Shown: piece after piece, positions 8,706 through 55,573 of the stretch | Layout: each line of letters begins with the position of its first letter | How positions within the stretch are numbered: position 1 is the stretch's first letter | Assembly: GCA_016861085.1 (NCBI GenBank) | Contig: BOKR01000001.1 | Location: 3,271-67,270 of the forward strand | From: Patescibacteria group bacterium | GTDB lineage: Bacteria; Patescibacteriota; Microgenomatia; UBA1400; PJMF01 | DNA: 64,000 nt | Direction: 5' to 3' | Translations under genes and position numbers: made by a program | Notes under the pieces: model-generated | What the model saw: the letters and a program-made list of their open reading frames with translations, nothing else | What the model was told of the DNA's origin: nothing | The model's database searches: none

Positions 8706-8760
8706 ATGACTTTCTCTTTCCAGTATACCTCAATTTGTGATCGAAAATAATTATCTATGC

Positions 8761-8963
8761 TATAATGCCTCTATGTTGCAAAAAGTCTCAAACAAACTTC
8801 TTCTTACCTCTCAGGATTAAGGGGAGTTGTTTGCGTTTTAAAATCCCCTTACAAGAAGGGGTTTTTTTTCTTTCGGACCCGATCTTTTTCGTCAGAAAAA
8901 GTCGTAGGTACGAAAGAAGTAAGAGGTAACACTACATAGTAAAACAGGTACAATAGGGAGCAT
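8761..8963 (+). promoter_or_regulatory. leuS 5' leader: extended -10 promoter (TGcTATAAT at 8758-8766), terminator/antiterminator switch (hairpin 8844-8861 plus U-run; alternative pairing of 8817-8825 with 8844-8852), conserved about 50-nt downstream element (8868-8916) shared with the thrS leader
   Basis: Hairpin TCCCCTT-ACAAG-AAGGGG followed by 8 U. Upstream TTAAGGGGA is complementary to the hairpin's 5' arm. The 8868-8916 block is near-identical to 53694-53740. Confidence 0.5.
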
Positions 8964-11516
8964 ATGTTTAATCAAAACCAAATAGAAGAAAAGTGGCAGC
9001 AAATCTGGGAAAATAATCAACTGTTTCAGCAGAGTGCTGATTCAACTTCAGTCAAAGATAAGTTGTACTTGTTGTTTGCTTTTGCGTATCCTTCTGGGTC
9101 TGGATTACATGTTGGCCATGTTGAAAGCAAGACTGCTTTAGATATCTTAGCTAGATATTACAGAATGAAAGGGAAGGATGTTTTCTTTCCAGTTGGTTGG
9201 GATGCATTTGGGTTACCGGCGGAAAACTATGCTATTAAAACTGGAATTCACCCAAAAGTTACTACTAAAGATGCAATTATCACGTTTAGAAGACAAATTA
9301 AGCGAATTGGTATTTCATACGATTGGGCAAACGAGCTAGCAACCAATCATCCAGAATACTATAAATGGACACAATGGATTTTTATTCAGATGTTCAACAA
9401 AGGATTAGCATATCAAAAAAATGGTATGGTTAATTGGTGTCCGCAAGACCAAACCGTGCTCGCAAATGAACAGGTGGTTGAAGGCAGATGTGAGCGCTGT
9501 GATAGTCAAGTTGTTCAAAAAGAATTGAAGCAATGGTATTACAAAATTACTCAGTACCAAGAGGAGTTAATTACTGGACTAGATCAAGTTGATTGGCCTG
9601 AAGCCACCAAAGCGCAACAGTTAAATTGGATTGGTAAAAAGACCGGTATCGAAATAACATACAAAATTGCAGATACAGATAAAACGGTTACTTGTTTTAC
9701 TACAAGACCAGATACTAATTTTGGTGCCACATTCGTGGTGATTGCTCCAGAGCACCAGTTTGCCAAAGAAGTCGCGAAGAATAATACAACAGTTGCCGAC
9801 TATTTGGATGCAGCAAGCAAAAAAACAGAACTTGATAGACAGCAAGAGGGCAAAACAAAGACTGGAGCGTTTACTGGTTTTTATGCAATTAACCAGTTAA
9901 CTAACAAAAAAATGCCAATATGGGTGTCTGATTTTGTTTTGGGTGGTTTTGGAACTGGTGCTGTTGTTGGTGTTCCAGCCCATGATGTAAGAGATTTTGA
10001 ATTTTCTCAGTTCGTGAATTCACAAAGTGACAACAAAGCTGATGATGCAGAAAACGCAGATTCTCGAATCGAGGTAATCAGAGTCGTTGTTGGCAGTGAC
10101 GGTGACACTTCGGAAATTACCAAAGTGGAACAAGTGCAAGAAGAAACTGGTACGATGATTAATTCTGACTTCTTAAATGGCTTAGACATTCATGAAGCCA
10201 CACAAAAAATTATGGATTACTTGGAAGAGCAGGGCATGGGTAAACGGGTAACGACCTATCGACTACGTGATTGGCTGATTTCTAGACAGCGCTACTGGGG
10301 GACTCCAATTCCAATTGTGTACGATCCTGAAGGTAATCCACATCCTGTAAAACAGGAGTACTTACCTTGGGAGTTGCCAACGGATGTTGATTTTAAACCA
10401 ACCGGAGAATCACCACTGAAATCAAGCAAGGAATTTATTGAGAGAACACACAAGTATGTATCACAAGTTCATGCAGATTTAATTGCTGAAAAAGGATGGG
10501 ATTCCTCTGGAGAAGGTTGGACTCCAGAGTTTGATACAATGGATACTTTTGTTGATTCAAGTTGGTATTTTTTGCGTTACGTGGATTCAAGAAACAAAGA
10601 TGTTTTTGCCGATGTATCTCAATTGAAAGCGTGGCTGCCGGTCGATTTATACATGATTGGTCCAGAGCACATAGTGTTACATTTGTTGTACTCACGTTTC
10701 TTTACAAAGTTTTTGCGCGATGAAGGATACCTCCACTTTGATGAGCCGTTTATGAAGATGCGTCACCAAGGTATGATCTTGGGCCCAGACAACCGTAAAA
10801 TGAGTAAATCAAAAGGAAACGTCATCAATCCAGATGAAATTATTGAAAAGTTTGGTGCTGACACACTGCGAGTCTATGAAATGTTCATGGGTCCACTAGA
10901 AGCTGACAAGCCTTGGGATATTCGAGCGGTGATTGGAGTATATAAATTCTTACAACGTGTGTATAGCATGGTTAGTGAGAAAGATTTAGCAGAGTTTTCG
11001 CAGCAAGAAAAGACAAAAACAGAACAAAAACTACACCAACTGATTGCTAAGGCCACAGATGATATTCCAAAACTAAAATTCAATACTTCAATTGCCTTTA
11101 TGATGGAGTTTATGAATGTGTGGCAGGATGAGAGTAAAAAATATAGTAAAACACTTTCATCGGAAGACAAGATCAAGTTTATTAAGGTTCTAGCTCCGTT
11201 TGCTCCATTTATGGCTGAAGAGTTGTTTGAAATGGTAACTGGTCAGACCAGTGACAGTGACGACTACAACGGAGTTCACATCACTGTATGGCCTGAATTT
11301 GATCCAAATAAGGCTCAAAGTGACACTGTTATGATTCCCGTTCAGATAAATGGGAAGGTTCGCGCTCAGTTATCGGTTTCTGCAGAGACCGCAAGTGATC
11401 AACAAGTTGTTTTGAATCAAGCGATTGCACTCCCAGAGCTAAAAAAATATCTTGAAGGCAAAGAAATCAAAAAAAAGATTTATGTTGCTGGCAAGATTAT
11501 TTCGTTGGTTGTCTAA
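8964..11516 (+). CDS. leuS: leucyl-tRNA synthetase
   Basis: Class I aaRS motifs: P-S-G-x-LHVGH (HIGH) near the N-terminus, KMSKS (KMSKSKGN), CP1 editing motif TTRPDT. 850 aa. Confidence 0.95.
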   Translation: MFNQNQIEEKWQQIWENNQLFQQSADSTSVKDKLYLLFAFAYPSGSGLHVGHVESKTALDILARYYRMKGKDVFFPVGWDAFGLPAENYAIKTGIHPKVTTKDAIITFRRQIKRIGISYDWANELATNHPEYYKWTQWIFIQMFNKGLAYQKNGMVNWCPQDQTVLANEQVVEGRCERCDSQVVQKELKQWYYKITQYQEELITGLDQVDWPEATKAQQLNWIGKKTGIEITYKIADTDKTVTCFTTRPDTNFGATFVVIAPEHQFAKEVAKNNTTVADYLDAASKKTELDRQQEGKTKTGAFTGFYAINQLTNKKMPIWVSDFVLGGFGTGAVVGVPAHDVRDFEFSQFVNSQSDNKADDAENADSRIEVIRVVVGSDGDTSEITKVEQVQEETGTMINSDFLNGLDIHEATQKIMDYLEEQGMGKRVTTYRLRDWLISRQRYWGTPIPIVYDPEGNPHPVKQEYLPWELPTDVDFKPTGESPLKSSKEFIERTHKYVSQVHADLIAEKGWDSSGEGWTPEFDTMDTFVDSSWYFLRYVDSRNKDVFADVSQLKAWLPVDLYMIGPEHIVLHLLYSRFFTKFLRDEGYLHFDEPFMKMRHQGMILGPDNRKMSKSKGNVINPDEIIEKFGADTLRVYEMFMGPLEADKPWDIRAVIGVYKFLQRVYSMVSEKDLAEFSQQEKTKTEQKLHQLIAKATDDIPKLKFNTSIAFMMEFMNVWQDESKKYSKTLSSEDKIKFIKVLAPFAPFMAEELFEMVTGQTSDSDDYNGVHITVWPEFDPNKAQSDTVMIPVQINGKVRAQLSVSAETASDQQVVLNQAIALPELKKYLEGKEIKKKIYVAGKIISLVV

Positions 11517-18079: not shown

Positions 18080-21000
18080 TTGTCTATTAAATTGTCCAAA
18101 AAATTTGTACTATATACGCTAGGTATGTTTATTAACCAAAAAGCTCCAGCTAGAGGCAGGGGGTTCCTGTTTTTTGTTGTCCTTATTGTGGTTTTTGGTG
18201 CAAGTATAGCGGCAGGCTTTTACAGTGTTAGTAAATGGTTATTCGGACGCGATGAATCAACACAAATAACGCAAACAAATCCTGTTCAAGGTCGGGTTAA
18301 AGGTGAGACGACTGAGCAACCCAGTAAACAGAATTTAGATGCTGGAAATCAGCCACAAGTGTTAGGCCAAGTCAAAGCAGCCGAAGATGAGATTACAGAG
18401 AACAGTTTGGTTTTCAGATTGAAGGTTTTCTTTCTAGACACAATTCATGGTATATCAGCAAAGTTTGATACCGATTTGGAGGTTGGAAATGATGTAATCG
18501 TTGGTAACGATACAGATATTGGAGGAGACCTTACTGTAGCTGGAACCTTAATCACAGCAGACGAATTAATAGCTCCAAATGTAGTGTACTCAATTCTTGC
18601 AGGAACGGGAATTACAGTTGCAGGAACACAGGATATAACTATAACTAATAGTGATCTCGGATCTTCTCAATTAATTTTCAAGAATTTCAAGATTGGAGAC
18701 AATACTATTTCTGCAGGAAGCAATGATGATACATTAACTTGGCAAGGAACAAACGGAGTTTCGTTAAGTAATGACGGCAAAACAATCACTATTTCTGCAA
18801 GCGGAAGTGAGTTAAATGTCTCTGGTTGGACAGATGACGGTTCAACAGTGAGGTTAATCAGTGCTACAGATAACGTTGGAATTGGAACAACAACTGCAAC
18901 AGAAAAACTAACAGTATCCGGGAACGGAACATTGTCAGGAAACTTAGAAGTTGGTGGAAACCTAAATGTTCTAGGAAACACCACAGTTCTTTCTGGCTTC
19001 AACAATTCAGGCGGGGGTATTACAAATGCAGGAGCAATCACTGGAGCAACAGGATTTACCAGTTCAGGCACAATTACACTCTCAGGATTAAGTACAGGTT
19101 TAGTACAGAGTAGCTTTACTGGTGTGCTGAGTAGTAGTGCTCTCAACTTGAGCACAGGTTCAGCTAATGGTTATCTCACAGGAGCCTTGCCAGTTGCCAA
19201 CGGAGGCACAGGTCTTTCTAGTTACACAATTGGGGACATTTTGTATGCATCTGCAACAAATACACTTGCAAGCTTGGGAATTGGAGCAACAAATGAAGTT
19301 CTCACAGTTGCTGGAGGAGTACCAGTTTGGGCATCAGTAACAGGAGGTGGTGGAATTTGTCCAAACTGTTTAGTCAATGATCCAGGAAGTACTCAGACAA
19401 TAACTCCAGGAAGTGCAACAGCAACAGGGTTGGTAGTAAAGCAAGCAAGTGGTGGTAGTGTAGATACATTTAGAGTGGAAAGCTTTGATGGGGCAAATGT
19501 ATATTTCAAAATAGATTCAACCGGAAATGTAACCCTTGGAAATCAAACCAGTAGTGGTGTATTTACCGTTTCACCTGCAAGTACTGATCCAATATCTCTT
19601 TCTCCAGTAGCCCAAGGAGCAGGACAATTTACAGGCACAATCACTAGTGAAGACTTAACAGCAAACAGAACATGGACATTCCCAAACAACTCAGGAATAG
19701 TTTGTTTAGCATCAGGCAACTGTAGTGGTACATCAGCAGGTGTAGGTGGATCAGGAACAACGAACTATATTACCAAGTGGGATGGAACGTTTTCAGTAAC
19801 TGATTCTCTGCTGTATGACAATGGAACAAATGTAGGAATTGGAACGACTTCGCCTGTGAGTAAACTGACAGTCGTTTCTTCTGGAAACCTGTACGCAACC
19901 ACAATTCATAGTACTCACCATGGTTTACTAATAAGTACTGATGATAATTCAAGTACTAGAAGGTTGTTATCTCTTAAAAATCTTGCTGGAGGAATTCCAG
20001 GAGGAGGTACAGAAGTGTTTGTAGTAACAGCGGGAGGAAACGTAGCTATCGGTACAACAGCTCCAACAGCAAAGCTACATGTTCAGGGTACTGCATTAGT
20101 GACTAGCACATTGAATGTATCTGGAGCAACTACACTTGCTTCAACTCTTGATGTGACAGGTGCAATTACCACAGGTGGAAATCTTTCTGTAAATGGAACT
20201 GGAAATAGTTATGTGATGGGTAATTTTGGGATTGGAACAAGTAACCCGAGTACAACAGCAGCTTCAGGAAGACGATTAGAAATAAGAGGTAGTAATCCAG
20301 GTCTATTGTTTGGTCATTCCACAGAAGCTAATACCAGTGGTGAGATTTGGTATGACCACGGTACTGCAGATCTGAATATTGATAACAGATACAATGGAGC
20401 ATTTGCAGATATACATTTTAGGACAACAACTTCGGGGACTGCAAATAGTGCAATGACAATAAAAGGGGATGGCAACGTCGGAATTAACACAACTGCACCA
20501 TCGGCACGATTACATTTAGTTGGAGTTGGAACAACAAACAGTACAGAAACACTCAGGGCAGTAAATTCAGCTGGAACGCTTGGGTTGATTGTCAATGACA
20601 ATGGTTCGATTTATACTCCAGATGCTACAACGCCAACAGGTACCTACAACTTTGTATTTGGACCAAACACAATTGGAGGAAGTAATAACATTGTTTTGGG
20701 TCAATCAAATGCTACTTCACAAAGTGGTGGTGGAAGTGTAAATGCCATCATTGGTCAGAATAACAGTATGACTAGCTCTGTGAGTTATGCTTTTGGTAGA
20801 GGGCTGATTAGTGGTTCTTCTTTCTCTAACTTTATTGGATATGGCACGAATAGTGGATATTTCACTTCAGCTCAAACTGCCCGTATACAAATTCATGCAA
20901 GCGTTGGCAATGTTCCAGCAATTAATTTCTTGACCAAAGAGACCAGTAGAATGCACATAAATGGTGATGGCAATGTTGGAATTGGCACAACTGTTTCTAC

Positions 21001-22231
21001 TGGAAAATTGAATGTTGAGGGTGCAGCAACAGGCAAAGCACTGGTAGTACTCAATGAAACGGGAGGTCAAGATATTTTTGTTGCATCTGCATCTGGTGTG
21101 AATAGATTTAGAATTCAAAATAATGGTAGTACTTTTGTTTCAAGTGACTCAACGAGTGCATTCTTAGTATCAGATATATCGGGAAATAATATTTTAAGAA
21201 TTGCTGGTTCTACTCGTAGAATTGGAATCAATGATCAAACATCAGATGCAACTTTGGAAGTTGTCAAAAATAGCACAGATAATATTTTTGCAGTAAGCAG
21301 TTCAGAAAATGCAGATGGTGATTATTTTATGGTTACGAATGGTGGGAATGTGGGTATTGGGTCGACGAGTCCACTTTTAGGATTAGAGATTGTAAATAAA
21401 GCTGCTGATTTTTATACAGGCTATGATGCTTCATTACTAATTAAAAATAGTACTTATAATCAGGAACCACGAATAGTGCTCTACAATTCATCTGGGGCGT
21501 CTCTTGGAACACCAACCGGAGAACTATATTTTGCATCAAATAGCAATTATCAAACTTTTGGATCTGGTGTGAGAGGTTATTCAGCAAGCTCTTTAGGAAG
21601 TGCTACTGGTCTTCAGTTCTTTACTACTGGAACAGCTCAAACACGTTTGACCATAAATGAAACTGGACTTGTAGGAATTGGTACTACTAGTCCAACATCA
21701 TTGCTTCATGTTTCAGATAATTCAGGCACTTGGCTTTCTTCTGAGTATCGATCTGCAAACTTATTAGTGAACCGAAGTTTTAGTACAGCAAGTAGTGATG
21801 TGACTTCGTACGGTCAGTATATAAATAACACATCATCTCGTGCAACTGGAGCGAATAATCTTACAAACATTGGTTTATATGTTAATGTGCAGGGTGCACA
21901 ATCCAATTATGCAGCTATTTTTAATGGCGGCAACGTTGGAATAGGCACCACGTCTCCAAGAGGTAATCTAGACATCGGTGGAGATAATGCAGAACTACAT
22001 ATTGGAACTGCAGCTAAGGGATATATTGGATTAGGGACACAGGCTGATTATAGCGCAAACTGGACAAACCAAGCAGCAATTGCCATAAATACAGTTGTTC
22101 TAGAAGGAACTGGAAGTAATGGTTTGAATATAAGAAATCATACAGACGGTGCCTGGGGATCGGTTTTTGCTAGTACCTACACAACATACGGGGGATCACT
22201 AACGACGCCTTCATTTGGGTCATCTAATTAA
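18080..22231 (+). CDS. giant membrane-anchored fibre protein, N-terminal 1383 codons; repetitive GNVGIGTT(S/T)P beta-helix/tail-fibre-like repeats; in frame with the next ORF across a single TAA
   Basis: N-terminal TM anchor (FLFFVVLIVVFGASIAAGFYSV). Dozens of degenerate repeats centred on NVGIGTTxP…KL.V.G. N-terminal 200 aa paralogous to the 23770 gene. Stop TAA at 22229-22231 is in the same frame (frame 2) as ORF 22235-23773. Confidence 0.8.
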   Translation: MSIKLSKKFVLYTLGMFINQKAPARGRGFLFFVVLIVVFGASIAAGFYSVSKWLFGRDESTQITQTNPVQGRVKGETTEQPSKQNLDAGNQPQVLGQVKAAEDEITENSLVFRLKVFFLDTIHGISAKFDTDLEVGNDVIVGNDTDIGGDLTVAGTLITADELIAPNVVYSILAGTGITVAGTQDITITNSDLGSSQLIFKNFKIGDNTISAGSNDDTLTWQGTNGVSLSNDGKTITISASGSELNVSGWTDDGSTVRLISATDNVGIGTTTATEKLTVSGNGTLSGNLEVGGNLNVLGNTTVLSGFNNSGGGITNAGAITGATGFTSSGTITLSGLSTGLVQSSFTGVLSSSALNLSTGSANGYLTGALPVANGGTGLSSYTIGDILYASATNTLASLGIGATNEVLTVAGGVPVWASVTGGGGICPNCLVNDPGSTQTITPGSATATGLVVKQASGGSVDTFRVESFDGANVYFKIDSTGNVTLGNQTSSGVFTVSPASTDPISLSPVAQGAGQFTGTITSEDLTANRTWTFPNNSGIVCLASGNCSGTSAGVGGSGTTNYITKWDGTFSVTDSLLYDNGTNVGIGTTSPVSKLTVVSSGNLYATTIHSTHHGLLISTDDNSSTRRLLSLKNLAGGIPGGGTEVFVVTAGGNVAIGTTAPTAKLHVQGTALVTSTLNVSGATTLASTLDVTGAITTGGNLSVNGTGNSYVMGNFGIGTSNPSTTAASGRRLEIRGSNPGLLFGHSTEANTSGEIWYDHGTADLNIDNRYNGAFADIHFRTTTSGTANSAMTIKGDGNVGINTTAPSARLHLVGVGTTNSTETLRAVNSAGTLGLIVNDNGSIYTPDATTPTGTYNFVFGPNTIGGSNNIVLGQSNATSQSGGGSVNAIIGQNNSMTSSVSYAFGRGLISGSSFSNFIGYGTNSGYFTSAQTARIQIHASVGNVPAINFLTKETSRMHINGDGNVGIGTTVSTGKLNVEGAATGKALVVLNETGGQDIFVASASGVNRFRIQNNGSTFVSSDSTSAFLVSDISGNNILRIAGSTRRIGINDQTSDATLEVVKNSTDNIFAVSSSENADGDYFMVTNGGNVGIGSTSPLLGLEIVNKAADFYTGYDASLLIKNSTYNQEPRIVLYNSSGASLGTPTGELYFASNSNYQTFGSGVRGYSASSLGSATGLQFFTTGTAQTRLTINETGLVGIGTTSPTSLLHVSDNSGTWLSSEYRSANLLVNRSFSTASSDVTSYGQYINNTSSRATGANNLTNIGLYVNVQGAQSNYAAIFNGGNVGIGTTSPRGNLDIGGDNAELHIGTAAKGYIGLGTQADYSANWTNQAAIAINTVVLEGTGSNGLNIRNHTDGAWGSVFASTYTTYGGSLTTPSFGSSN

Positions 22232-22234
22232 CAA

Positions 22235-23773
22235 GTGGGCATGTATTTCCCAGGCTCAACGGGAGTTGGACTTGTTACAAGCCAATTGGAACGACTTACT
22301 GTTAACTCTGTTGGTAATGTCGGTATAGGTACCACAACACCTGTGGGTAAACTAAATGTCGAAGGTGCAGTTACAGGTAAGGCGTTGGCAATATTTAACG
22401 AAACTGGAAACCAAGATATTTTAACAGCTAGTGCAAGTGGTTCAACAAAATTTGCAGTTACTAACGGTGGAAACATATTGTTACGAGGAACGTCCCCTTC
22501 TATTGATACTGGTAACTTGGCAACGCTAACTTTTAGTGTTGCAAATGCAAATAGAGTGCAGATAGATGGTGCCTATCTTGAAACAAATTTTTTGAGATCA
22601 CATTCTGGTGCAGGTACTTCATTAATTGTTAGAGGTAATAATTTACAAACTGCCAATATTTTTGAGGTAGAGGATAGTAATGGTACTGATTTTTTCACAA
22701 TTGACACTAGTGGCAACGTCGGCATCGGCTCCACAACTCCAGGTCAAAAACTAGATGTAGTCGGCAACGCCCGTTTCTCTGCTGTTGGTTCTGATGCATA
22801 TGCCTCAGATTTACATCTCACTGCAGATGGAACTCTCACAACCGCTGCATCTGATATTAGACTGAAGAAAGATTTTGTTGAGCTCAATGACAGTGCAACA
22901 TTAGACAAAATTCTACAACTTAAAACCTACAACTTCAATTGGAAGAGTAACAACTCTGCTGATATTGGTATGGTTGCCCAAGAAGTAGCTACTATCTTCC
23001 CAGAACTTACCTTCACCAACCAAGTTGATGGATACATGGGTATCAATTATTCAAGATTCTCTTCATTACTCATTAGTGGAATGCAGGCTCAACAAGCACA
23101 GATTTCATTATTACAAAATGCCTTAACATTTAATTCAGACGGTTCTGTAGTTGTTGCAACCACATCGGCTCAAGAAAACAATTCAGAGGAAAACACGGCT
23201 CAACAATTACTTGGCAGTTACGCTTCTCTTTCTGAAAATATTTGGAAGTTCCTTGTTGAAGTGAGATTCTCAGCTTTGGCAGTCTTTGAAAACTCTGTGC
23301 AATTTTTGAGTGCCGTTGTCTTCAAAAATGACGTTATTGTTGATGGCAATTTGATTCTGAATCACAATCAGGCTGGAACAGTAACCATTCCTACTGGCAA
23401 GGCAGGAGCTCGAGTTACGTTTAGCCAAGCATTTGAGCAAATGCCAATCATTACACTAACATCAACTCAAAAAGTTGCTGGCGAATACTGGATTTCTCAG
23501 ACAAGTAACTCTGGTTTTACTATTGAGTTTTCTCAAGCTCAAACACAAGATATCGCTATTAACTGGCAAGTCTCAGTTACCAATAGCGGTGAAGGTGTAG
23601 CAGTTGAAGCATTTGATTTTGGTACAAATAGTGAACAGGCACAAGAAACGCAAGATGTCTCACAGACAAACCCAGAGCCAATTACTGAAGATTTAGCAGA
23701 AGTTGTAGAGGAAGCCACCCAAGAGTCGGCGATTCTTGGCGCAACTGATTCTGGAGAGGTGGTTGCAGAATGA
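22235..23773 (+). CDS. C-terminal portion of the fibre protein, containing a peptidase S74-like intramolecular chaperone auto-processing domain
   Basis: Starts with the same GNVGIGTTTPVGKLNVEGAVTGKALAIFNETG repeat as the upstream ORF. SDIRLKKDFVELNDSATLDKILQLKTYNFNWK…GMVAQEVATIFPELT…GYMGINYSRFSSLLISGMQAQQAQISLLQ matches the tailspike/endosialidase C-terminal chaperone domain. Same frame as 18080-22231, separated by one TAA. Confidence 0.75.
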   Translation: MGMYFPGSTGVGLVTSQLERLTVNSVGNVGIGTTTPVGKLNVEGAVTGKALAIFNETGNQDILTASASGSTKFAVTNGGNILLRGTSPSIDTGNLATLTFSVANANRVQIDGAYLETNFLRSHSGAGTSLIVRGNNLQTANIFEVEDSNGTDFFTIDTSGNVGIGSTTPGQKLDVVGNARFSAVGSDAYASDLHLTADGTLTTAASDIRLKKDFVELNDSATLDKILQLKTYNFNWKSNNSADIGMVAQEVATIFPELTFTNQVDGYMGINYSRFSSLLISGMQAQQAQISLLQNALTFNSDGSVVVATTSAQENNSEENTAQQLLGSYASLSENIWKFLVEVRFSALAVFENSVQFLSAVVFKNDVIVDGNLILNHNQAGTVTIPTGKAGARVTFSQAFEQMPIITLTSTQKVAGEYWISQTSNSGFTIEFSQAQTQDIAINWQVSVTNSGEGVAVEAFDFGTNSEQAQETQDVSQTNPEPITEDLAEVVEEATQESAILGATDSGEVVAE

Positions 23774-26700
23774 AAAAACGCACAATCTTTCTTCTAGCTT
23801 TCATTCTAACCTCTGCATATTTTGGTGTGGGATCTGTAAATTCTTGGCTGAGAGGAACTGATACAACAGGAACAGTTCTTGGAGAGTCTGACCAGCCAAC
23901 TAGTAACGGATTAGTTGCTCAAAATGGAGTTAGTTCAGGTTTTGGAACTAGTGTGGGAAGTGATTTACCAACTGCCCCAGTTTCAACTGGAGTAGTCAAA
24001 GCAGTAGAGGATGAGATTAGTGAGAATAGTTTAGTATTTAGACTTAAAATTTACTTTTTGGAAGCAATTCATGGAATATCAGCAAAGTTTGATACTGATG
24101 TAGAGGTTGGTAATGATCTAACAGTTGGTAATGATGTAATAGTTAACAATGATCTTGAAGTTGGTGGTGATTTAATTATTGGTGACACTATTATCACTCC
24201 TGATGGAATCACTGCAGAGAATATCATTTATAGTCTTACTGCGGGAACAGGGGTATCACTGAGTGGTACTCAAGATGTTACGATAACAAATACAGATCTT
24301 GGGTCATCACAGAATATTTTCAAAAACTTTAAGATTGGTTCAAACACAATTTCCGCAAGTTCCAACGATGATACGTTAACTTGGACATCTGGTACTGGGA
24401 TTTCTTTATCCAATTCTGGTAAGACGATCACGATTTCTGCTAGTGGCAGTGACCTTAACGTTTCTGGTTGGACAGACGATGGAACAGCGGTGCGCTTGAC
24501 TACTTCGACTGATAACGTGGGGATTGGAACAGCAACCCCAGGATACAAACTGCATGTCGTTGGGACAAGCTATTTTAGTGGCCAGGCAACATTTGCAGGC
24601 GGAACTGTGATCTCCTCAGGGATTGACAATTCTTCTGGTGGAATTACAAATGCTGGTCCAATCACTGGGGCAACAGGGTTAACTTCGTCTGGAACGATTA
24701 CGTTTTCAGGTCTATCAACAGGGATTGTGCACTCAAACGGGAGTGGAGTTTTGTCATCTTCTGCTTTGAATCTCGCTGGAGGTGCAACAGAAATTACCGG
24801 TACACTTCCCACCACAAACGGTGGCACAGGCATAACTTCATATGCGACTGGTGATATTATTTATTCTTCGGCTACGAACACACTCACAACTCTTGGAATT
24901 GGCTCAACCAATGAAGTTCTCACGGTGGCAGGTGGGGTACCAACTTGGGCCACTATTACTGGTGGAGGTGGACTCTGTAGCAACTGTTTGGTGAATAATC
25001 CGGGGAGTACGCAGACAATCACACCAGCAGCGGCTACAGCAATTGGCTTGGTTATCAAGCAGGCGTCATCGGGAAGCGTGGACACTTTCAGAGTTGAAAG
25101 CAACGATGGTTCAAGTGTGTATTTCAAGATCGATTCTTCAGGTAATGTCACGTTAGGAAATCAAACCAGTAGTGGAGTATTCACTGTTTCACCCTCAAAC
25201 ACTGATCCGATTTCAATATCACCAGTTGCACAAGGGGCAGGGCAGTTTACAGGAACAATCACTTCTGAAGACCTCACGGCGGCTCGAACATGGACATTCC
25301 CGGATGCAACAGGATCCGTATGTTTAACTACGGGGAACTGTGCTGGTGTTGGAGGACAAATTGGAGGTTCTGGAACGACTAACTACATTGCCAAGTTCTC
25401 AAACTCTTCAAATATTACAACTTCTCTCTTATACGATGACGGTAACAATGTTGGACTAGGAACATCGAGTCCAGTTCATCTATTCCAGATAATGGGCGCA
25501 AAAATAGGTAAGGCGCTTACAGTGCTTAACGAAACCGGAGACCAGGCAATTTTTGTAGCATCATCTTCTGGGACAAATAGATTTATTATTCAAAATGATG
25601 GAAATGTAGGTATTGGAACAAGCACTCCAACCTCGCTGTTCCATGTGAATGGGGCAGTAGACTTTGATTCAACTTTTGGGGTAAATGGAGCAACTACACT
25701 TGGTTCAACATTGGATGTGACGGGACTAGCTACTTTTGGTGGGAATGTAGGGATTGGAACAACTACTCCGACTTCTGCTTTACAAGTGTACGGGACTGAT
25801 CCTCAAATCAGACTCACAAGAAATGGAGGATACACTTTAACTTTTGATGCTTTCGATGGTGGTGGTAGTCCGAACATTGTGAGTAGTGGTCCTTCATTAA
25901 AATTTTTGACGAGTACTTCAAATAATTTTCTTACTACTGCTGACAACGCATTTGGAACACTTAATGGTCATTTAGGTGTAGCTGTTACAGGACTTTACGT
26001 TACTGGTAAAGGAGTTAATTCATATGTTACTTCGGCGTTTAGATCTGCAAACAGCAATCAAACAGGTGATTTAATAAGAATGTACGATAGTTCAAACGAT
26101 ATTCTTGGCCAATTTGTGCCTATTTCGACCACTGACCAGCGGTTACGATTTGTTCTATATAACACTTTGGAAACAACTGTCACTAACTATGAACGGTTAA
26201 CAATTTATCCTGATACAACGAATAGTATTTTTAGAATTGAAGCAGAGAGTGGTGGGACAGGAACCTTGCGAAATCTTGTATTACAAGGTGGTGGGGGAAA
26301 CGTTGGAATCGCTTCTATTGCACCTGGTAGAACATTAGATGTCGTAGGTACTGGTCGTATTACCGATACTGGTTCAACTACGCCAGTTTTAACTATTGAT
26401 CAAAATGACTCAAGTAATAATGCAACTACCTTAAGACTAGAACATGGGGGTGGTGGTGAAAATAGTCGTAGAATTATTGAAGCAATAAGTGGTGGGAGTG
26501 AAGTATTCAGATTGTTTCCAACAGGAAAGATAGAAACAATCGTTAATGGAGGTTCCACTGACTATGATGCTGCTATCTTTAATCAAACTGACACATCAAC
26601 TGCTCATGCTGGCGCTGCACTCCAACTCAATCATTATGGTACTGGAGCAGGTTCTAGCAGAGTGTTAACAGCTTTTAACGCTGCTGGGGGTAGTCCTAGT

Positions 26701-29700
26701 GAGATCATGTTTTTACAACCTGATGGGACATTTTATGTAAGAGGTAACGCTGGAGTTGGGACAACTGCTCCAATTGGGAAACTCAATGTTGAAGGCGCTG
26801 CCATTGGCAAAGCCCTCGCTATCCTTAATGAAACTGGTGACCAAGCGATTTTTGTTGCTTCTGCTTCTGGTACGAATAGATTTATTATTCAAAATGGCGG
26901 AAATGTTGGAATTGGATCTATCACGCCAGCTGCAAATCTACATGTTTATCAGGAAAGTCCAACACCTAACCAAATCATGTTTCAAGTTGGCACGGGTGCA
27001 GTAGCAACGAGGTTCACAGTAGATGAGGATGGAGATGGTCATTTTGGTGGGGATGTTGATTTTAGAACTCTACTAACCGGAAACGGTACAGTCACGGGGC
27101 CATCACATAGTTTTGTGAATGACACTAATCTAGGCATGTATCGCTATGGCACTGACACTTTAAGTTTGGCAACAGCAGATGCAGATAGGTTGATAATTGA
27201 TGCCTCAGGAAATATTGGAATTGGAACTACTGCTCCTGGAACCCAGCTAGAACTTTATGGCAACAAAATTCACATTCGATTATTTGACACCTTTGGTTCT
27301 GGAGCGATTATTAGAGAGACTTCAGATAATCTAATATTGCAATCACAGGCAGGAAGCATTGTTGGAATAAGTGGTGCTGCTGACGGAACGACTTCCTTTC
27401 AATTTCAAAATTCATCAAATGTGAGTAGGTTTAATGTAAACGATCTTGGCTATGTGGGAATTGGTGTGAACGCTACGGCTAGTGTTGGTTCTGATACTGC
27501 GGCAGTGAACATCAACGGAGCCAAGACAGGAAAAGCATTATTTGGACTTAACGAAACAGGTAATCAAGCAATCTTTGCGGCTTCTGCTTCTGGTACTAAT
27601 CGCTTCCTTATTCAAAATGACGGAAATGTCGGGATTGGAACAACAACAGTTTCTTCACTTTTCACTATATCTGAAAGTAACTCAGCAACAAGTTTAACTA
27701 CTTTTGATTCAACAGTAAGGTTGCAGAATTTGAATAGTGGTGACAGCACTTTCTCAAGAATAGGATTTTATGACACCACTTATCTTGGTGGTATAACTTT
27801 TGTGAACAGAGGGCAATACAGCAGTGACATTCGCTTTGAAACAAGAGGAGGGAGTGTAAGTAATTGGCCTGTAACAAGGATGATTGTTACAGATGGGGGT
27901 GCTATTGGTGTTAACCATGCAAATCCTTTGAGTCAGCTTCAAGTCAATGCTCAGTCTAATACTGGGAATTATATTTTGTCAGATTGGAATAGCACTGGAA
28001 ACAAAATACCTGCGGCAATTTTTTCCGCAACGAATAATGGAGGAAGTACTCCAGCCGCTGCAGAACCGACTTTGGTTTTGGGTAGAAAAGGCGTTGGTGG
28101 GCAGTCATTTGACAACATAGTTGACTTCAAACTCCGAAGATATGAAGTTAGTAGTACAGAGCCTCGAACAGCATTAGATATAGGTTTACAACACACAAAC
28201 TCTGCAACAACTACGGATGTATTGACTTTGCTTAGTAACGGGAATGTTGGTATAGGAACTTCTGCTCCTGCCCATGCCCTTGAGGTCAATGGCAATATTG
28301 CGGTTGAACAATTTTTATATCATAGAGGTGATACAGATACTTTTTTTAGATTTGGTACCAATCAGTGGCAAGTAGTTGCTGGAGGAGTACAATTTTTTGA
28401 ATTTGATGGGGGTGCAACAAATGTTGGTGCCTTTAACTATAACAACCTTGACGTTGACTTTCGCATTGATGGTGACACCAATGATGGAGTCTTTTTTGTG
28501 GATGGTGCTCTAGAAAATATTGGTATTGGTACGACTGTCCCAGGGGCAAAATTGCATCTTATCACTGATGCTGCAGACTATGCCGCTGAAATTTACAACG
28601 ACGGAAACGCTACTACTCGGGCAGGTTTGTTAATCCAGGCAGGACTTGATGACCAGACAGCAGTAGGCCCCTCAACTTTAATTCAGTTCAATGACGGTGA
28701 TGGTGGTGCAGTTGGTTCAATTACTTTTGGTAACTCGCTAACAGCGTACAATACCAGTTCTGACGTACGACTCAAAGACGTCTCTGGTGTTTCTAGTAAA
28801 GGATTATCAGATTTGATGAATATCAACGTGTATGACTATAGTTTCAAAGCAGACTCAAATAAGAGACTGCATACTGGGTTTTTAGCACAGGAGCTATACC
28901 AAATCTATCCAGATGCAGTTACAGCGTATCTTGATGATACCAATAAGTATTGGCAAGTTGACTATGGCAAACTTACTCCGCTGATTATTAAGTCAATTCA
29001 AGATCAACAAAAACAAATTGAGAGTTTGGCCTTAGAAATAGATGCAACTGGTAAAGTTATTTCACACGGTTCTAAAGAGGTAACTCCTGATGAGTCAGAG
29101 GCTACAGAAGCTCTTGAGAGTTCAACTATCCAAGATTTAAGTTCACATGCAACGATCTCAGATCTTGTTTGGACGTTTATTCAAGAGGTAATCTTTACAG
29201 TTAAAACCACTTTCTTGGCTAGTGTTGAATTTGTAAAAGACGTTACTTTCAGGGGATCAATCAAATTTTCTGGTGACACAGTTGGTAAATTCGTAGTTCC
29301 TGCTGGTGCTTTGAGAGTTGAGGTTCCATTTGATTTTGCTTTTAGCCAAGCACCAACAGTTTATTTGTCAGCCCAAAGTCAGATTATTGGTGGATATAGC
29401 TTAGAATCTGTCAGCACATCAGGGTTTGTTTTGAAGTTTGAAGTAGCTCAAACTTCTGAGAAAGTATTTGATTGGCTGGCAGTGTTAAGTTCAGATGAAA
29501 ACACAGCCACCATTAAAGTACTAGAAGAATCGAGTACAAGTTTACAGTCCATTGACAATGTAGATCAAGACGGGGAGGTTGGTGGGGCAACAACAGAAGG
29601 TTCAACTGACACACAAGAGGCTGTAGAAGAGACTCCAAATCCAGAACCAGAAGAGACAACTTCTCAAGCTAGCTCTGAGGCTGAGGCATCTGTGAGTGCC

Positions 29701-33392: not shown

Positions 33393-33722
33393 TAAGCAAG
33401 CGTCACACCTAACTCGCAATTAGGAATCCTGGGTTGCATAATGTGAGTATCAAAATTGCGATACTGAACACAATTTGCATATTCAGAACGCCTTTGTCGG
33501 AAATGGCAAACGTATTGGTGAATCGTTATTTCACTAGACTTACTTTCAGGTTTATTATCACGATCTTTTGTGAAAAAAACAGGAAAGAGTTGCAAAGGTA
33601 TGAGTTAGAAATAATTCTTACACCAGAGGGTGGTACCGCTTTTTATTTTGATAACCATAGATTAAAAAGCCCCTTTTGTCTCTTGAGCACAAGTGTGCCT
33701 GAGGATAAAGGGGGCTTTTTTG
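33393..33722 (+). promoter_or_regulatory. T-box riboswitch leader of argS
   Basis: Conserved T-box sequence AGAGGGTGGTACCGC (33625-33640), followed by intrinsic terminator AAAGCCCC…GGGGGCTTTTTT (33666-33722). Long structured leader with a Stem-I-like hairpin 33440-33500. Downstream gene is an aaRS. Confidence 0.65.
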
Positions 33723-33781
33723 GAGTATTTGAGGCAAATGGGGTAGTATTAAATTAGTAAATCAAAATTAAGATAACCAGT

Positions 33782-48026: not shown

Positions 48027-48078
48027 GTACTCTGCATATTTTGTATCTATGACTTTTTTCAAAAAAGACTGGTCATAA

Positions 48079-48107
48079 GAAAAAAAATGGCCCTCAAGGA
48101 GGGCCAT
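48079..48107 (-). terminator. intrinsic terminator for the HTH gene (minus strand), possibly bidirectional
   Basis: ATGGCCCTC-AAG-GAGGGCCAT hairpin preceded on the plus strand by A8, which is U8 on the minus strand. Confidence 0.65.
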
Positions 48108-48131
48108 TCTGAGTCAATTTTCTAAGAAGAT

Positions 48132-48401
48132 CTACATTTCTTCGCCTGTTACTCCAAGTAACCAGAGTACTGCTTCTTTTTTATATCTTCTATCACCGCG
48201 AGAATTAATTCTAATCGCCGGGAGCTTGCCTCGTTTTCCCCATCTCTTAATGGTGAGGGGAGAAACGCGCAGTAAATCTGCAACTTCACGAACAGTGAGC
48301 AGGTCTGGCAAGTTCTTAATATCTAATCTACTTGCGTCATCAGCTCTGCCGGTTTTTTTATCTTCTTCTTGTACTGCAGTGGGCTGAACTTGATCGTTCA
48401 T
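48132..48401 (-). CDS. small helix-turn-helix DNA-binding protein (excisionase/MerR-like HTH)
   Basis: …LLTVREVADLLRVSPLTIKRWGKRGKLPAIRIN… is a classic excisionase-family HTH. 89 aa. Confidence 0.7.
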   Translation of the reverse strand: MNDQVQPTAVQEEDKKTGRADDASRLDIKNLPDLLTVREVADLLRVSPLTIKRWGKRGKLPAIRINSRGDRRYKKEAVLWLLGVTGEEM

Positions 48402-50949: not shown

Positions 50950-50978
50950 AAAAGACCCCGCCAAGGCGGGGTCTTTCT
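50950..50978 (+). terminator. bidirectional intrinsic terminator between ahcY (+) and rplL (-)
   Basis: GACCCCGCC-AA-GGCGGGGTC hairpin flanked by an A-run 5' and a T-run 3'. Confidence 0.7.
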
Positions 50979-51062
50979 AAATCAATCGAAAATTTGATTG
51001 TGTGCCTTACGGCATATTTCGTACCAGCAGAATTTTTTAACAAAAATTCTGGGTCCGAAAGA

Positions 51063-51464
51063 TTATTTTAATTCAACAACACAACCTGCTGCTTCGAGAT
51101 CTTTCTTTGCTTGTTCAGCAACTTCTTTCTTAGCACCTTCCAAAACTGTTTTTGGAGCTGATTCTACGAAAGTTTTAGCTTCACCTAAACCAAGTTCTGG
51201 TTTGAGGGTTCTAACAGCCTTAATAGCACCGATTTTGTTTGAACCTGCATCTTTGAGGATGACATCAAACTCAGTTTGCTCTTCAGCTGGAGCTGCTGCT
51301 GCGGCTGCTGGCATAGCACCCATCATCATAGGAGCTGCTGCGGTAACACCGAATTCTGATTCGAGTGCTTTTACTAATTCTGAGACTTCCATTAAAGAGA
51401 GTTCTTTAATTGCGTCTACCAATTTTTGCACTTTTGGAGAAAGTGCTTTGTTTTCATCTGACAT
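51063..51464 (-). CDS. rplL: 50S ribosomal protein L7/L12
   Basis: Ala/Met-rich hinge [22 protein letters not shown]-terminal domain …[35 protein letters not shown]…. Confidence 0.95.
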
Positions 51465-53384: not shown

Positions 53385-53564
53385 ATGAAATTAGAAGAAA
53401 CTTCTGCCCCCTATAGCAGAGAAACCTTAGCACGATTGGCAAAGATGCTTGAGAAGTACGAGGTTCTTCCTTGGCTTAATCCAGCTACTAATGCCATTAG
53501 CATTAAGGATTTTAGTTTTATGCAACATCGTCCCTTTATGCAAGTATTTTTTCCTCAAGAATAG
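53385..53564 (+). CDS. small ORF (59 aa) with strong Shine-Dalgarno
   Basis: AGGAGG sits 7 nt upstream of the ATG. 59 codons, below the 60-aa cut-off of the ORF track. Ends just before the thrS promoter. Confidence 0.3.
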   Translation: MKLEETSAPYSRETLARLAKMLEKYEVLPWLNPATNAISIKDFSFMQHRPFMQVFFPQE

Positions 53565-53806
53565 GTCATGGTATAATCCACGTGATGCATAAAGTATTGA
53601 TCGTAACCACCACTACAACTACAATCCCTGTTTAGGGTGTGGTTAGTAGTGTTTAAAGTAAATCACGAAAGCTCCCCTAAACGGGGAGCTTTTTCTTTCG
53701 GAGCCGACCTTTTTCGTTAGAAAAAGTCGTAGCTACGAAATATGCAAAGCAACGCTATGCTTAGGACGATATACTATATAATAAGTACACAAGATTAAGG
53801 AAACAC
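53563..53806 (+). promoter_or_regulatory. thrS 5' leader: extended -10 promoter (TGgTATAAT 53569-53577), terminator/antiterminator switch (hairpin 53670-53690 plus U-run; GTTTAGGG 53630-53637 complementary to CCCTAAAC 53675-53682), conserved about 47-nt element 53694-53740
   Basis: Hairpin AGCTCCCC-TAAAC-GGGGAGCT followed by TTTTT. The downstream block TTCTTTCGGAGCCGACCTTTTTCGTTAGAAAAAGTCGTAGCTACGAAA is about 94% identical to 8868-8916. Contains ACCACC (Thr codons) and UGGU upstream of the hairpin. Confidence 0.5.
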
Positions 53807-55573
53807 ATGAACGAACAACACAGTCAAGAAGAACTAGAAAAATTGAGACACTCAGCTGCTCATTTATTGGCAGCAGCAGTAATGGAATTGTACCCAGAGG
53901 CAAAACCAACAATTGGCCCAGCCACAGATGAAGGCTTTTATTATGACTTTGATTTTGGTTCAGCACCAATTAACGAGGATAGTTTAGTCGAAATCGAAAA
54001 GAAAATGCGTTTTTTGGTTAAAAACTGGGGAGCATTTGAGCGCCAAGAAGTCAGCGCTGAGGTGGCATTACAAAACTACAGATACAACTCATACAAGACA
54101 GAGCTTATTGATGAGATTGTCCAATCTGGTGAAGTCCTTACTTTGTACAAGTCAGGGAATTTTGTTGATTTATGTCGTGGAGGTCATATAGAAAAACCAT
54201 CTGTGAATCTCAAATATTTTAAATTACTTTCACTAGCGGGTGCATATTGGCGTGGAAGTGAACGAAATAAGATGCTTACTCGCATTTATGGCACAGCATT
54301 TTTCTCTCAACAAGAACTTGATGAGTACCTAAAAATGAAAGCTGAAGCCAAAGAGCGAGATCATAGAAAACTTGGAAAAGAATTGGGCTTGTTTGTCTTT
54401 TCTGACACTGTTGGTAAGGGTCTACCACTGTGGACTGCAAAAGGGGCAACAATTCGTCGTGAGTTAGAACGATTTGTAGTTGATGAAGAAATCAAGCGAG
54501 GGTACCAACATGTCTATACGCCAGATATCGCAAACTTAGATTTATACAAAAAGTCTGGTCACTACCCATACTATAAAGAAAGTATGTATGCGCCAATTCA
54601 GATTGAGGAAGAAGAATATATGCTTCGGCCAATGACGTGTCCGCATCATTTTGAGCTCTATAACGCGCATCCTCATTCATATAAAGAGCTACCTATGCGT
54701 ATTGCCGAACTTGCGAAGTTGTATCGATTTGAAAAGTCAGGAGAACTCACTGGTTTAATTCGAGTACGCAGTTTTTGTTTGGCAGACTCACACATCGTCT
54801 GTATGAAATCACAAGCAAAGTCAGAAATTAACGGCGTTTTGGATTTGATAGAGTACATGGCCCAAACATTTGGATTACAGCCAGGAGTTGATTTATCTTA
54901 TCGCTTATCGCTTGGTGATAGGGCAGACGATAAAAAATATTTCAAAGATGATGCCTCTTGGGATTTCGCAGAAGATGCATTGCGCCAAGTGTTGCAGGAG
55001 AGAGGCTCAAAATTTGTTGAAGCAGAAAAAGAGGCAGCTTTTTATGGTCCAAAGATTGATGTGCAAATGCGAAATGTGAATGGTAAAGAGGATACTGCTT
55101 TCACGGTTCAGTATGATTTTGTGATGCCACAGCGATTTGATTTGCAGTATGTAAATGAGAATGGTGCAGTTGAGCAACCAGTTGTTATTCATCGCTCATC
55201 TATTGGTGCAATTGAAAGGACAATAGCATTTTTGATCGAAACATTTTCTGGAAAATTCCCAGTTTGGCTCGCTCCTGTCCAGGTTAAAATACTTCCTATA
55301 TCAGATAAATATCTTGATTATGCACAAGAAGTATATTCACAACTGCTTCGGGAAAATATTAGGGTAGAGTTAGACAATCGCTCAGAGCGCTTACAAGCAA
55401 AGATTCGTGATGCTCAAATGGAAAAAGTGCCATACATGTTAGTTGTCGGGGAACAAGAAGTTGCCGATAAGACTGTCGCGGTTAGAAGTAGAGATACTAA
55501 AGAACAAAACGTTGTGTCGATCACTGATTTTCTTGCAAACATAAAGTCTGAGATTCAAGAACGAAAGCTATAG
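53807..55573 (+). CDS. thrS: threonyl-tRNA synthetase (lacks N-terminal TGS domain)
   Basis: Second additional domain, class II catalytic core (…MTCPHHFELYNAHPHSYKELPMRIAELAKLYRFEKSGELTGLIRVRSFCLADSHIV…), anticodon-binding domain. 588 aa. Confidence 0.9.
   Translation: MNEQHSQEELEKLRHSAAHLLAAAVMELYPEAKPTIGPATDEGFYYDFDFGSAPINEDSLVEIEKKMRFLVKNWGAFERQEVSAEVALQNYRYNSYKTELIDEIVQSGEVLTLYKSGNFVDLCRGGHIEKPSVNLKYFKLLSLAGAYWRGSERNKMLTRIYGTAFFSQQELDEYLKMKAEAKERDHRKLGKELGLFVFSDTVGKGLPLWTAKGATIRRELERFVVDEEIKRGYQHVYTPDIANLDLYKKSGHYPYYKESMYAPIQIEEEEYMLRPMTCPHHFELYNAHPHSYKELPMRIAELAKLYRFEKSGELTGLIRVRSFCLADSHIVCMKSQAKSEINGVLDLIEYMAQTFGLQPGVDLSYRLSLGDRADDKKYFKDDASWDFAEDALRQVLQERGSKFVEAEKEAAFYGPKIDVQMRNVNGKEDTAFTVQYDFVMPQRFDLQYVNENGAVEQPVVIHRSSIGAIERTIAFLIETFSGKFPVWLAPVQVKILPISDKYLDYAQEVYSQLLRENIRVELDNRSERLQAKIRDAQMEKVPYMLVVGEQEVADKTVAVRSRDTKEQNVVSITDFLANIKSEIQERKL

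Follow-up and report, generated by a model that had tools for sequence, protein, structure and literature searches.

The stretch of DNA analysed here, called the window below, is 64 kb long and comes from a metagenome-assembled genome (MAG) of the Patescibacteria, or candidate phyla radiation (CPR); all positions given are those of the window. Two aminoacyl-tRNA synthetase (aaRS) genes that it contains, leuS and thrS, are preceded by leaders made of the same parts in the same order: an extended -10 promoter, a short open reading frame (ORF) with a run of cognate codons (LLL before leuS, TTTTTT before thrS), an intrinsic terminator between this ORF and the structural gene, and a hairpin-forming block that is almost the same in the two leaders (Table 1). 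A preliminary description of this DNA had taken the block for an element shared by two aaRS switches, possibly as part of a divergent tRNA-sensing mechanism. Our analysis leads to a different picture, in which the two leaders are probably classical ribosome-mediated attenuators and the post-terminator block is a dispersed repeat hairpin of ~57 nt that lies outside the switch. The steps of transcription, translation and mobility that we describe are inferred from the sequence.

Table 1. Features of the leuS and thrS leaders and of the repeat units in the window
Feature	Position	Strand	Sequence, score or basis
leuS promoter P1, extended -10 box	8758..8766	+	TGCTATAAT; read from sequence
leuS leader ORF	8773..8820	+	MLQKVSNKLLLTSQD; translation
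leuS antiterminator 5' strand	8817..8825	+	UUAAGGGGA; includes the leader stop codon
leuS attenuator terminator	8844..8869	+	stem-loop 8845-8861, then U8 at 8862-8869
Hairpin repeat unit, leuS leader	8870..8926	+	R1 72.1 bits, E about 1e-13
Candidate leuS proximal promoter P2	8926..8954	+	GTAACA-17-TACAAT; consensus scan, 9/12 matches
leuS Shine-Dalgarno sequence	8955..8960	+	AGGGAG; leuS AUG at 8964
leuS, leucine--tRNA ligase	8964..11516	+	850 aa
Fourth, decayed repeat unit	48028..48079	-	R1 30.1 bits, E 2e-4
MerR/HTH_17 gene	48132..48401	-	89 aa
Third intact repeat unit	51006..51061	-	R1 64.8 bits, E 3e-12
rplL (ribosomal protein L7/L12)	51063..51464	-	
thrS promoter P1, extended -10 box	53569..53577	+	TGGTATAAT; read from sequence
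thrS leader ORF	53585..53635	+	MHKVLIVTTTTTTIPV; translation
thrS antiterminator 5' strand	53630..53637	+	GUUUAGGG; includes the leader stop codon
thrS attenuator terminator	53668..53694	+	AAAGCUCCCC UAAAC GGGGAGCUUU, then U-rich tail; hairpin 53668-53692
Hairpin repeat unit, thrS leader	53695..53751	+	R1 76 bits, E about 1e-14
Candidate thrS P2 -10 box	53777..53782	+	TATAAT; read from sequence
thrS Shine-Dalgarno sequence	53797..53801	+	AAGGA; thrS AUG at 53807
thrS, threonine--tRNA ligase	53807..55573	+	588 aa

The spacing at the start of both leaders is tight, with 6 nt between the end of the P1 -10 box and the leader AUG at leuS and 7 nt at thrS. No Shine-Dalgarno sequence fits into this interval, and the mini-ORFs would therefore be translated from leaderless transcripts. 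The leuS ORF contains three Leu codons in a row (CUU CUU CUU, 8797-8805) and stops at UAA (8818-8820), and the thrS ORF contains six Thr codons (53606-53623) and stops at UAG (53633-53635). Among the intergenic mini-ORFs of the window that combine a -10 box with an AUG, only these two have amino-acid runs. The mini-ORF is also kept in the leaders of two leuS and three thrS relatives, where codon changes are synonymous. At leuS these relatives are the loci L003 and L004 (LeuRS identity 81% and 79%), with the leader peptides MLQKNNNLLLLNL and MLYRNSNELLLTL and the same P1 box arrangement. At thrS they are L022, L023 and L024 (ThrRS identity 86-88%), with the peptides MHKKLITTTTTTTFPV, MHKKYNATTTTTTIPV and MHKKLIATTTTTTIPA, in which the Thr codons have changed synonymously; taking the window and these relatives together, the Thr run has 6-7 codons. 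The P1 box and its spacing are identical in L022 and L024, and the same box stands at the edge of the printed stretch in L023. The leuS loci L003 and L004 belong to the same MAGs as the thrS loci L024 and L022, respectively. More distant relatives have a weak version of the leader ORF (L025) or none (L005).

Two side observations concern these upstream regions. TATAAT-like boxes that end 6 nt before the start codon also precede ordinary genes at 11535 (+), 17856 (-), 36336 (+) and 42829 (-), which suggests that leaderless mRNAs may be common in this organism. In addition, a conserved 59-aa small ORF with a good Shine-Dalgarno sequence (53385-53564, +) ends just 5' of the thrS P1 promoter, and small ORFs of 58-74 aa are found in a similar position in the thrS loci L022, L023 and L025.

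In both leaders, the stop codon of the mini-ORF lies inside a strand that can pair with the 5' arm of the terminator. At leuS, TTAAGGGGA (8817-8825) is complementary over 8 bp to TCCCCTTA (8844-8851), and at thrS, GTTTAGGG (53630-53637) is complementary over 8 bp to CCCTAAAC (53675-53682), the antiterminator strand being the exact complement of CCCUAAAC at the latter position. The leuS antiterminator strand has two possible partners, the Leu-codon region (1:2 hairpin) and the terminator 5' arm (2:3). In the free RNA of both leaders, the codon run pairs with the antiterminator strand to form the 1:2 hairpin and the terminator forms alongside it. We then imposed a ribosome footprint at chosen codons during folding, and this constraint reproduced the leuS switch at equilibrium: with the ribosome on Leu codon 2, the lowest-energy fold is the 8-bp antiterminator, while the terminator forms with the ribosome at the stop codon or in the free RNA. 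For thrS, antiterminator pairing has the lowest energy with the ribosome on Thr codon 4 and transcription advanced as far as the terminator loop. These results uphold what the preliminary description had read from the sequence about the switch itself, namely the TGnTATAAT boxes before both aaRS genes, a terminator hairpin with a U-tract in each leader, an upstream strand complementary to the 5' arm of each hairpin, and a mutually exclusive choice between antiterminator and terminator.

The proposed mechanism would run as follows. Transcription from the TGnTATAAT promoter would begin at or beside the AUG, and the leaderless ORF of 15-16 codons would be translated as it emerges. When charged tRNA-Leu or tRNA-Thr is plentiful, the ribosome would reach the stop codon and mask the antiterminator strand, the terminator would form and transcription would stop. 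When charged tRNA is scarce, the ribosome would stall on the codon run and open the 1:2 hairpin, and region 2, freed in this way, would pair with the 5' arm of the terminator, so that the polymerase reads into the synthetase gene.

Leader-peptide attenuation of this kind has been described in other bacteria. The leader ORF of classical proteobacterial attenuators has a Shine-Dalgarno sequence, whereas the ORFs found here are leaderless. Apart from this, the two leaders resemble the proteobacterial pheST, Thr (RF00506) and Phe (RF01859) leaders in having four regions (1:2, 2:3 and 3:4 pairing) with the regulatory codons in region 1. Rfam searches of the leaders gave Phe_leader and Thr_leader only below threshold (24-31 bits; gathering threshold 55), and the terminator portion of the weak Phe_leader alignment coincides with the thrS terminator. 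Weak matches of 25-31 bits fit this kind of leader while remaining far under the 55-bit threshold, and we therefore do not assign the leaders to the RF00506 or RF01859 families, alike as the mechanism is. Attenuation of an aaRS operon has a precedent in E. coli pheST with its pheM leader (PMC1262725). The closest counterparts are the leaders of Streptomyces leuS (leuL2, MRAVRLLLSEPR) and thrS (thrL), which are leaderless leader-peptide attenuators (PMC8079986) that had been predicted earlier (PMC1262725). They share with the leaders in the window the target genes and a layout in which, ahead of the synthetase gene, a leaderless ORF with cognate codons precedes a hairpin and its U-tract. In contrast, the genome studied here is a CPR genome of ~1.2 Mb with ~39% G+C, there is no sequence homology to the Streptomyces leaders, the Thr run has 6-7 codons instead of 2, the antiterminator strand includes the stop codon, and a hairpin repeat is inserted after the terminator. 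The mechanism at leuS and thrS is thus known from Streptomyces, and its occurrence in the CPR appears to be new.

A different explanation of the leaders is that they bind uncharged tRNA directly, as divergent T-box-like elements in which the block is part of a tRNA-binding platform. The strings ACC, CUC and UGGU occur in the leaders, and a T-box-like leader precedes argS in the same genome. However, Rfam searches of the leuS and thrS leaders with T-box returned no match even at E<=10, and the ~70-80 nt between transcript start and terminator leave no room for a Stem I. The T-box class (RF00230) was rejected for both, as neither leader is long enough and both lack Stem I, specifier loop and T-box sequence. 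Since the block is located 3' of the terminator, it is not yet transcribed when the termination decision falls, and the attenuators of relatives look functional without it. The strings themselves find another explanation: the ACC codons are in frame and belong to the run of six Thr codons, while CUC is out of frame. We regard direct tRNA sensing as effectively refuted; what the two leaders probably sense is the supply of charged tRNA, by way of the translating ribosome. The preliminary description was right that neither leader is a T-box, unlike that of argS, where alone the T-box sequence is found. It had, however, offered CUC in the leuS leader as a clue, where the relevant codons are CUU CUU CUU, and ACCACC in the thrS leader, which is the start of the Thr run; in proposing divergent tRNA sensing it overlooked the probable sensor, a leader peptide of leaderless translation that has three Leu codons at leuS and six Thr codons at thrS.

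The argS leader deserves mention for its own sake. Located at 33452-33723 (+), upstream of argS (33782-35617), it contains the canonical T-box sequence AGAGGGTGGTACCGC followed by a terminator. Its score against the Rfam T-box model is 18.2 bits (gathering threshold 93), and whole-window scans missed it; it has the look of a CPR T-box that has diverged or been reduced. Gram-positive T-box leaders, including that of B. subtilis thrS, share with the leuS and thrS leaders the induction of an aaRS when charged tRNA is scarce and the choice between antiterminator and terminator, but the leaders here have no Stem I, specifier loop or T-box sequence and sensing would be by the translating ribosome. 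Processing of the B. subtilis thrS leader leaves a 5' hairpin that stabilises the mRNA, which is a possible analogy for the hairpin that follows the attenuators here.

The near-identical block behind the two terminators is real, with 44 of 48 positions identical (about 92%, slightly below the 94% given in the preliminary description). Searching with a degenerate 48-mer derived from the consensus of that description and allowing <=3 mismatches, we found 8868-8915 and 53693-53740 (both +) as the sole matches in the window, and none of 100 shuffles gave a match. The first comprises the last bases of the leuS U-tract and the unit hairpin, and the second is its counterpart in the thrS leader. The block is the hairpin core of a unit of ~57 nt (about 55-57 nt in tandem units), which at leuS consists of a hairpin at 8870-8916 plus a 3' tail and has a fold energy of -18.2 kcal/mol. 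The consensus of the unit has a basal helix YUUUCRGACC/GGUAYGAAA with a G.A mismatch and a 3' tail (A/U)AUGCAGNGCG. The fold supported by our data is a single nested hairpin, UUUCG-G-ACC-CGA-U-CUUUUUC [loop] GAAAAAG-UCG-NN-GGU-A-CGAAA, and all units fold alike, with a 5-bp base, a G.A 1x1 loop, 3 bp, a 2-nt 3' bulge, an apical helix of 9-10 bp and a loop of 3-4 nt. Of the four differences between the leuS and thrS blocks, two make up a compensatory pair (ACC/GGU versus AGC/GCU), one is in the bulge and one in the loop.

Pairing and covariation were assessed on a model-guided alignment of 11 units. The hairpin pairs in 92% of cells, compared with 41-55% when the 3' partners are slid, and double-sided changes occur in 6 of 17 pairs (13 cells). 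Covariation scored 0.23, compared with 0.11 in shuffles, and none of 500 shuffles reached this value, so the base pairing of the hairpin is clearly under selection. The two stems that the preliminary description took for alternatives are better read as this one nested hairpin. Its second stem, UUUCGU/ACGAAA, can pair in 92% of cells, but its covariation does not exceed that of shuffles. The sequence of the apical helix varies while its pairing is always kept, and at least three subtypes are common to different loci and genomes. Rfam searches of the units, run locally at E<=10, matched no known RNA family. Several specific identities were considered and rejected. A mimic of an anticodon arm, as in the E. 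coli thrS operator, would need an anticodon-like motif, and the loops of 3-4 nt are variable (GUUA, GUCA, UUUA, GAA, GUA, AUG) and contain none. Arm sequences resembling 9-mer DNA-uptake sequences never occur singly in the window. The 9-bp lower helix and 2-nt 3' bulge presumably recall domain V of group II introns; the 5' strand has no AGC triad, and wider Rfam scans list no group II intron.

One further explanation makes the block act as DNA, as a palindromic operator of a dimeric transcription factor that governs proximal P2 promoters. In its favour, the apical arms CTTTTTC-N4-GAAAAAG are a perfect inverted repeat, and at leuS and thrS the block is followed, after about 35-60 nt, by candidate -10 boxes. 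In both aaRS leaders, the unit stands between the terminator and a candidate proximal promoter. Upstream of leuS, L004 and L003 likewise have a TACAAT or TATAAT box, a conserved GGTTTATAATAA follows the last unit at thrS in L022, L023 and L024, and the TATAAT is present in L025, which has no unit; a P2 role of the leuS TACAAT and thrS TATAAT boxes can thus be suggested. But the arms differ wholly between units (CUUUUUC, AUUUUG, AGAAUUUUU) while remaining complementary, which fits base pairing and not a fixed half-site; G-U pairs occur at several positions of the hairpin; the distance to the putative -10 box varies; and the copies at rplL and behind the HTH (helix-turn-helix) gene are followed, on their strand, by neither a promoter nor a gene. 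A DNA operator is, on this evidence, very improbable.

To follow the unit beyond the two leaders, we built a covariance model (R1) with ten units as input and searched the window without filters, which found four copies in four different contexts. The third copy begins 1 nt past the rplL stop codon, 5' of a terminator at ~50950-50980, and its apical stem belongs to a different subtype (AGAAUUUUU/AAAAAUUCU). The fourth lies between convergent genes, directly 3' of the terminator and U8 of the MerR/HTH_17 gene; its tail AUAUGCAGAG is intact and its basal helix degraded. The best sub-threshold Rfam match of the window also falls here, an L20_leader hit of 35.9 bits at 48073-48184 (-). We rejected it as a ribosomal-protein leader, as it covers just the 3' end and the intrinsic terminator of the MerR/HTH_17 gene.

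Comparison with relatives revealed that occupation of these sites varies. The thrS leaders contain tandem direct units, two in L022, three in L023 and one in L024, and copies are kept in all relatives with at least 86% ThrRS identity; the thrS leader of L025 has no unit. The leuS leaders of the two nearest relatives, L003 and L004, have no unit at the orthologous place. In L032, which is syntenic over 21.8 kb, the rplL and HTH sites are empty and the thrS leader holds three units, and comparison of the filled with the empty rplL site shows a discrete insertion of about 58 nt. A scan of the genome collection with the subtype-A apical-stem pattern gave only two true extra loci, in other Patescibacteria MAGs (L006 and L007), and the same pattern had no match in JGI metagenomes; as these first scans were specific to subtype A, they understate the spread of the element. 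In L006 and L007, the block follows the U-run of another structured leader, upstream of a hypothetical gene, and the orthologous loci L016 and L019 keep this leader without the block. Subtype A is ~89% identical between the window and this distant lineage. No further copy was found in the 8.8 kb beyond the window. Copy number seems low: the 73 kb of source genome contain 4 copies, and the 21.8 kb of the relative a single locus.

The block as an element common to two aaRS switches therefore largely fails the test that the preliminary description had itself set: it also occurs after the rplL stop codon and after the HTH terminator, it is missing from the leuS leaders of the two nearest relatives, whose thrS leaders have it, and the rplL and HTH sites are empty in L032. 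The unit is present at several unrelated intergenic sites, is present or absent at orthologous sites, and is an imperfect palindrome whose pairing is maintained, and in these respects it seems to behave as a small dispersed repeat of the REP (repetitive extragenic palindrome) or MITE (miniature inverted-repeat transposable element) type that lands beside terminators. Of the five independent sites, four abut a terminator U-tract without a gap and all five point along local transcription, an orientation bias expected by chance roughly 1 time in 32 and, with five sites, only suggestive. Because GC skew shows a single replichore, with units on both of its strands, their orientation follows transcription and not replication. 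For the same reason we rejected an element of the IS200/IS605 type with a replication-strand bias. A phage origin was likewise rejected, as a general pattern matched viral contigs by chance only.

We propose that the unit was ancestral in the thrS leader of a small Patescibacteria clade, in 1-3 tandem copies, and that in the lineage of the window it was recently copied to three more places: into the leuS leader, next to rplL on its 3' side and behind the terminator of the HTH gene. It would insert, or survive, right after terminator U-tracts and along local transcription. The 92% identity of the leuS and thrS blocks would then be due to recent copying, and since copying history explains the near-identity, no shared sensing function is needed. 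Nor can the block influence whether transcription terminates, as the polymerase reaches it only once that choice has been made. Once transcribed, the unit would fold into a stable hairpin (about -15 kcal/mol), whose most likely role, if it has one, is that of a REP-like determinant of mRNA stability or processing and not that of a sensor of amino acids or tRNA; the suggestion in the preliminary description that the block is a structured site for protein binding or processing is in this sense possible.

Known repeats offer partial parallels. REP sequences and BIMEs (bacterial interspersed mosaic elements) of Enterobacteria and Pseudomonas are small extragenic palindromes mobilised by REP-associated tyrosine transposases (RAYTs). 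The unit shares with them a short imperfect palindrome, an intergenic and co-transcribed position, the occurrence as dispersed copies and tandem clusters, presence that varies between relatives, and compensatory changes that maintain the structure. It differs in that no RAYT occurs in the sequence examined, array units are direct and not alternating, the stem is A/U-rich rather than G/C-rich, the unit abuts terminator U-tracts precisely, and copy number seems low. Correia elements (NEMIS) of Neisseria and other MITE-like repeats are co-transcribed hairpins that can serve as RNase III substrates or donate promoter elements and so alter the expression of neighbouring genes; Correia elements measure 100-155 bp and have terminal inverted repeats and a TA target duplication. 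The unit resembles these as a small mobile intergenic repeat that is co-transcribed with genes and forms a hairpin, but at 57 nt it amounts to little more than a single hairpin, and no clear duplication accompanies it.

Several points weigh against our view of the leaders as attenuators followed by a repeat with no part in the switch. The thrS terminator is thermodynamically far stronger than the 8-bp antiterminator, and antitermination at thrS must be kinetic because the antiterminator wins only before the terminator 3' arm is made. Transcription start sites, leaderless translation and read-through are predictions from sequence. No RAYT, IS200-IS605 TnpA or other transposase was found among the window ORFs scanned, and no clear target-site duplication at the sites compared, with a possible ATTT at the L006 site and none evident at the rplL site. 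The search for the repeat covered only ~73 kb of the source genome (about 6%) and ~90 kb of relatives. Finally, the three intact copies of the window all flank genes of the translation apparatus (leuS, thrS and rplL) and run in the direction of transcription, and across the clade the copies at thrS have been kept, which is also how a selected regulatory module would look.

These last points lead to the idea that the hairpin is a selected cis-regulatory RNA operator, in which a protein or RNase reads the basal helix and coordinates the expression or decay of the thrS, leuS and rplJL mRNAs, the near-identity of the copies reflecting functional constraint. The intact copies at thrS, leuS and rplL, the co-orientation of all five independent sites with transcription and not replication, and the retention of thrS copies in all relatives of at least 86% ThrRS identity would fit such an operator, as would the conserved geometry of basal helix, mismatch and bulge alongside a covarying apical helix and the ~89% identity of subtype A in the distant L006/L007 lineage. 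Yet the orthologous leuS, rplL and HTH sites of close relatives are without the unit, the number of copies in the thrS leader ranges from 1 to 3, one copy, flanked by convergent genes and with nothing 3' of it, is decaying, and some copies are in 5' and others in 3' untranslated regions (UTRs). The L006/L007 copy precedes a hypothetical gene without a Pfam family; its 261-aa protein, with 8 homologues only, is uninformative. We consider such an operator unlikely, and the chance that the hairpin has a selected regulatory role is in our view small. More speculatively, the ~57-nt unit may be an undescribed, Patescibacteria-specific structured RNA module, domesticated within the transcripts of aaRSs and ribosomal proteins, that targets sites right after terminator U-tracts. 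We hold this to be doubtful; if true, a dedicated protein or RNase would recognise the basal helix, G.A mismatch and 2-nt bulge included, and the genes of the translation apparatus would be under a second, post-attenuation layer of control.

Other features came to light in the same sequences. The structured leader beside the L006/L007 copies is an RNA of ~105 nt (L006 2066-2172, +; L007 2609-2716, -; L016 1080-1190, +; L019 1078-1190, +) whose 5' end follows closely on a TATAAT box; GAGGGCAC/GUGCUCUU closes the structure, and a U-run forms its 3' end. It is nearly invariant between genomes, where the downstream hypothetical protein of 261-277 aa is only about 53% identical, and it adjoins the tmRNA in L006, L007 and L016. 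Rfam searches of this RNA from L006 and L007 gave no match, and we regard it as a candidate new riboswitch or small RNA. Four records (P0018, P0154, L006 and L025) are labelled as 'Pseudomonadales bacterium' MAGs; their LeuRS/ThrRS are 69-76% identical to those of this genome and they share CPR-type loci, so that these labels in the public records look wrong. Elsewhere in the window, three consecutive large ORFs at 18080-29718 (+) encode 1383, 512 and 1982 aa, the middle one with a Peptidase_S74 domain (endosialidase chaperone), and may form a surface or tail-fibre-like gene cluster.

For comparative genomics, these loci hold a warning: near-identical blocks in two leaders may be recent repeat insertions and not a common regulatory site. 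The insertions in question would represent a new, small hairpin repeat whose copies come to lie directly behind terminators and, within a 5' UTR, in tandem arrays. Patescibacteria do not make most amino acids, which are supplied by their hosts, and to our knowledge almost nothing is known about how their genes are regulated. Our analysis suggests that one CPR genome may use two kinds of sensor for the supply of charged tRNA, a reduced T-box-like leader at argS and leader-peptide attenuation at leuS and thrS. Attenuation by leader peptide would further imply that transcription and translation are coupled in this lineage and that leaderless initiation is efficient.

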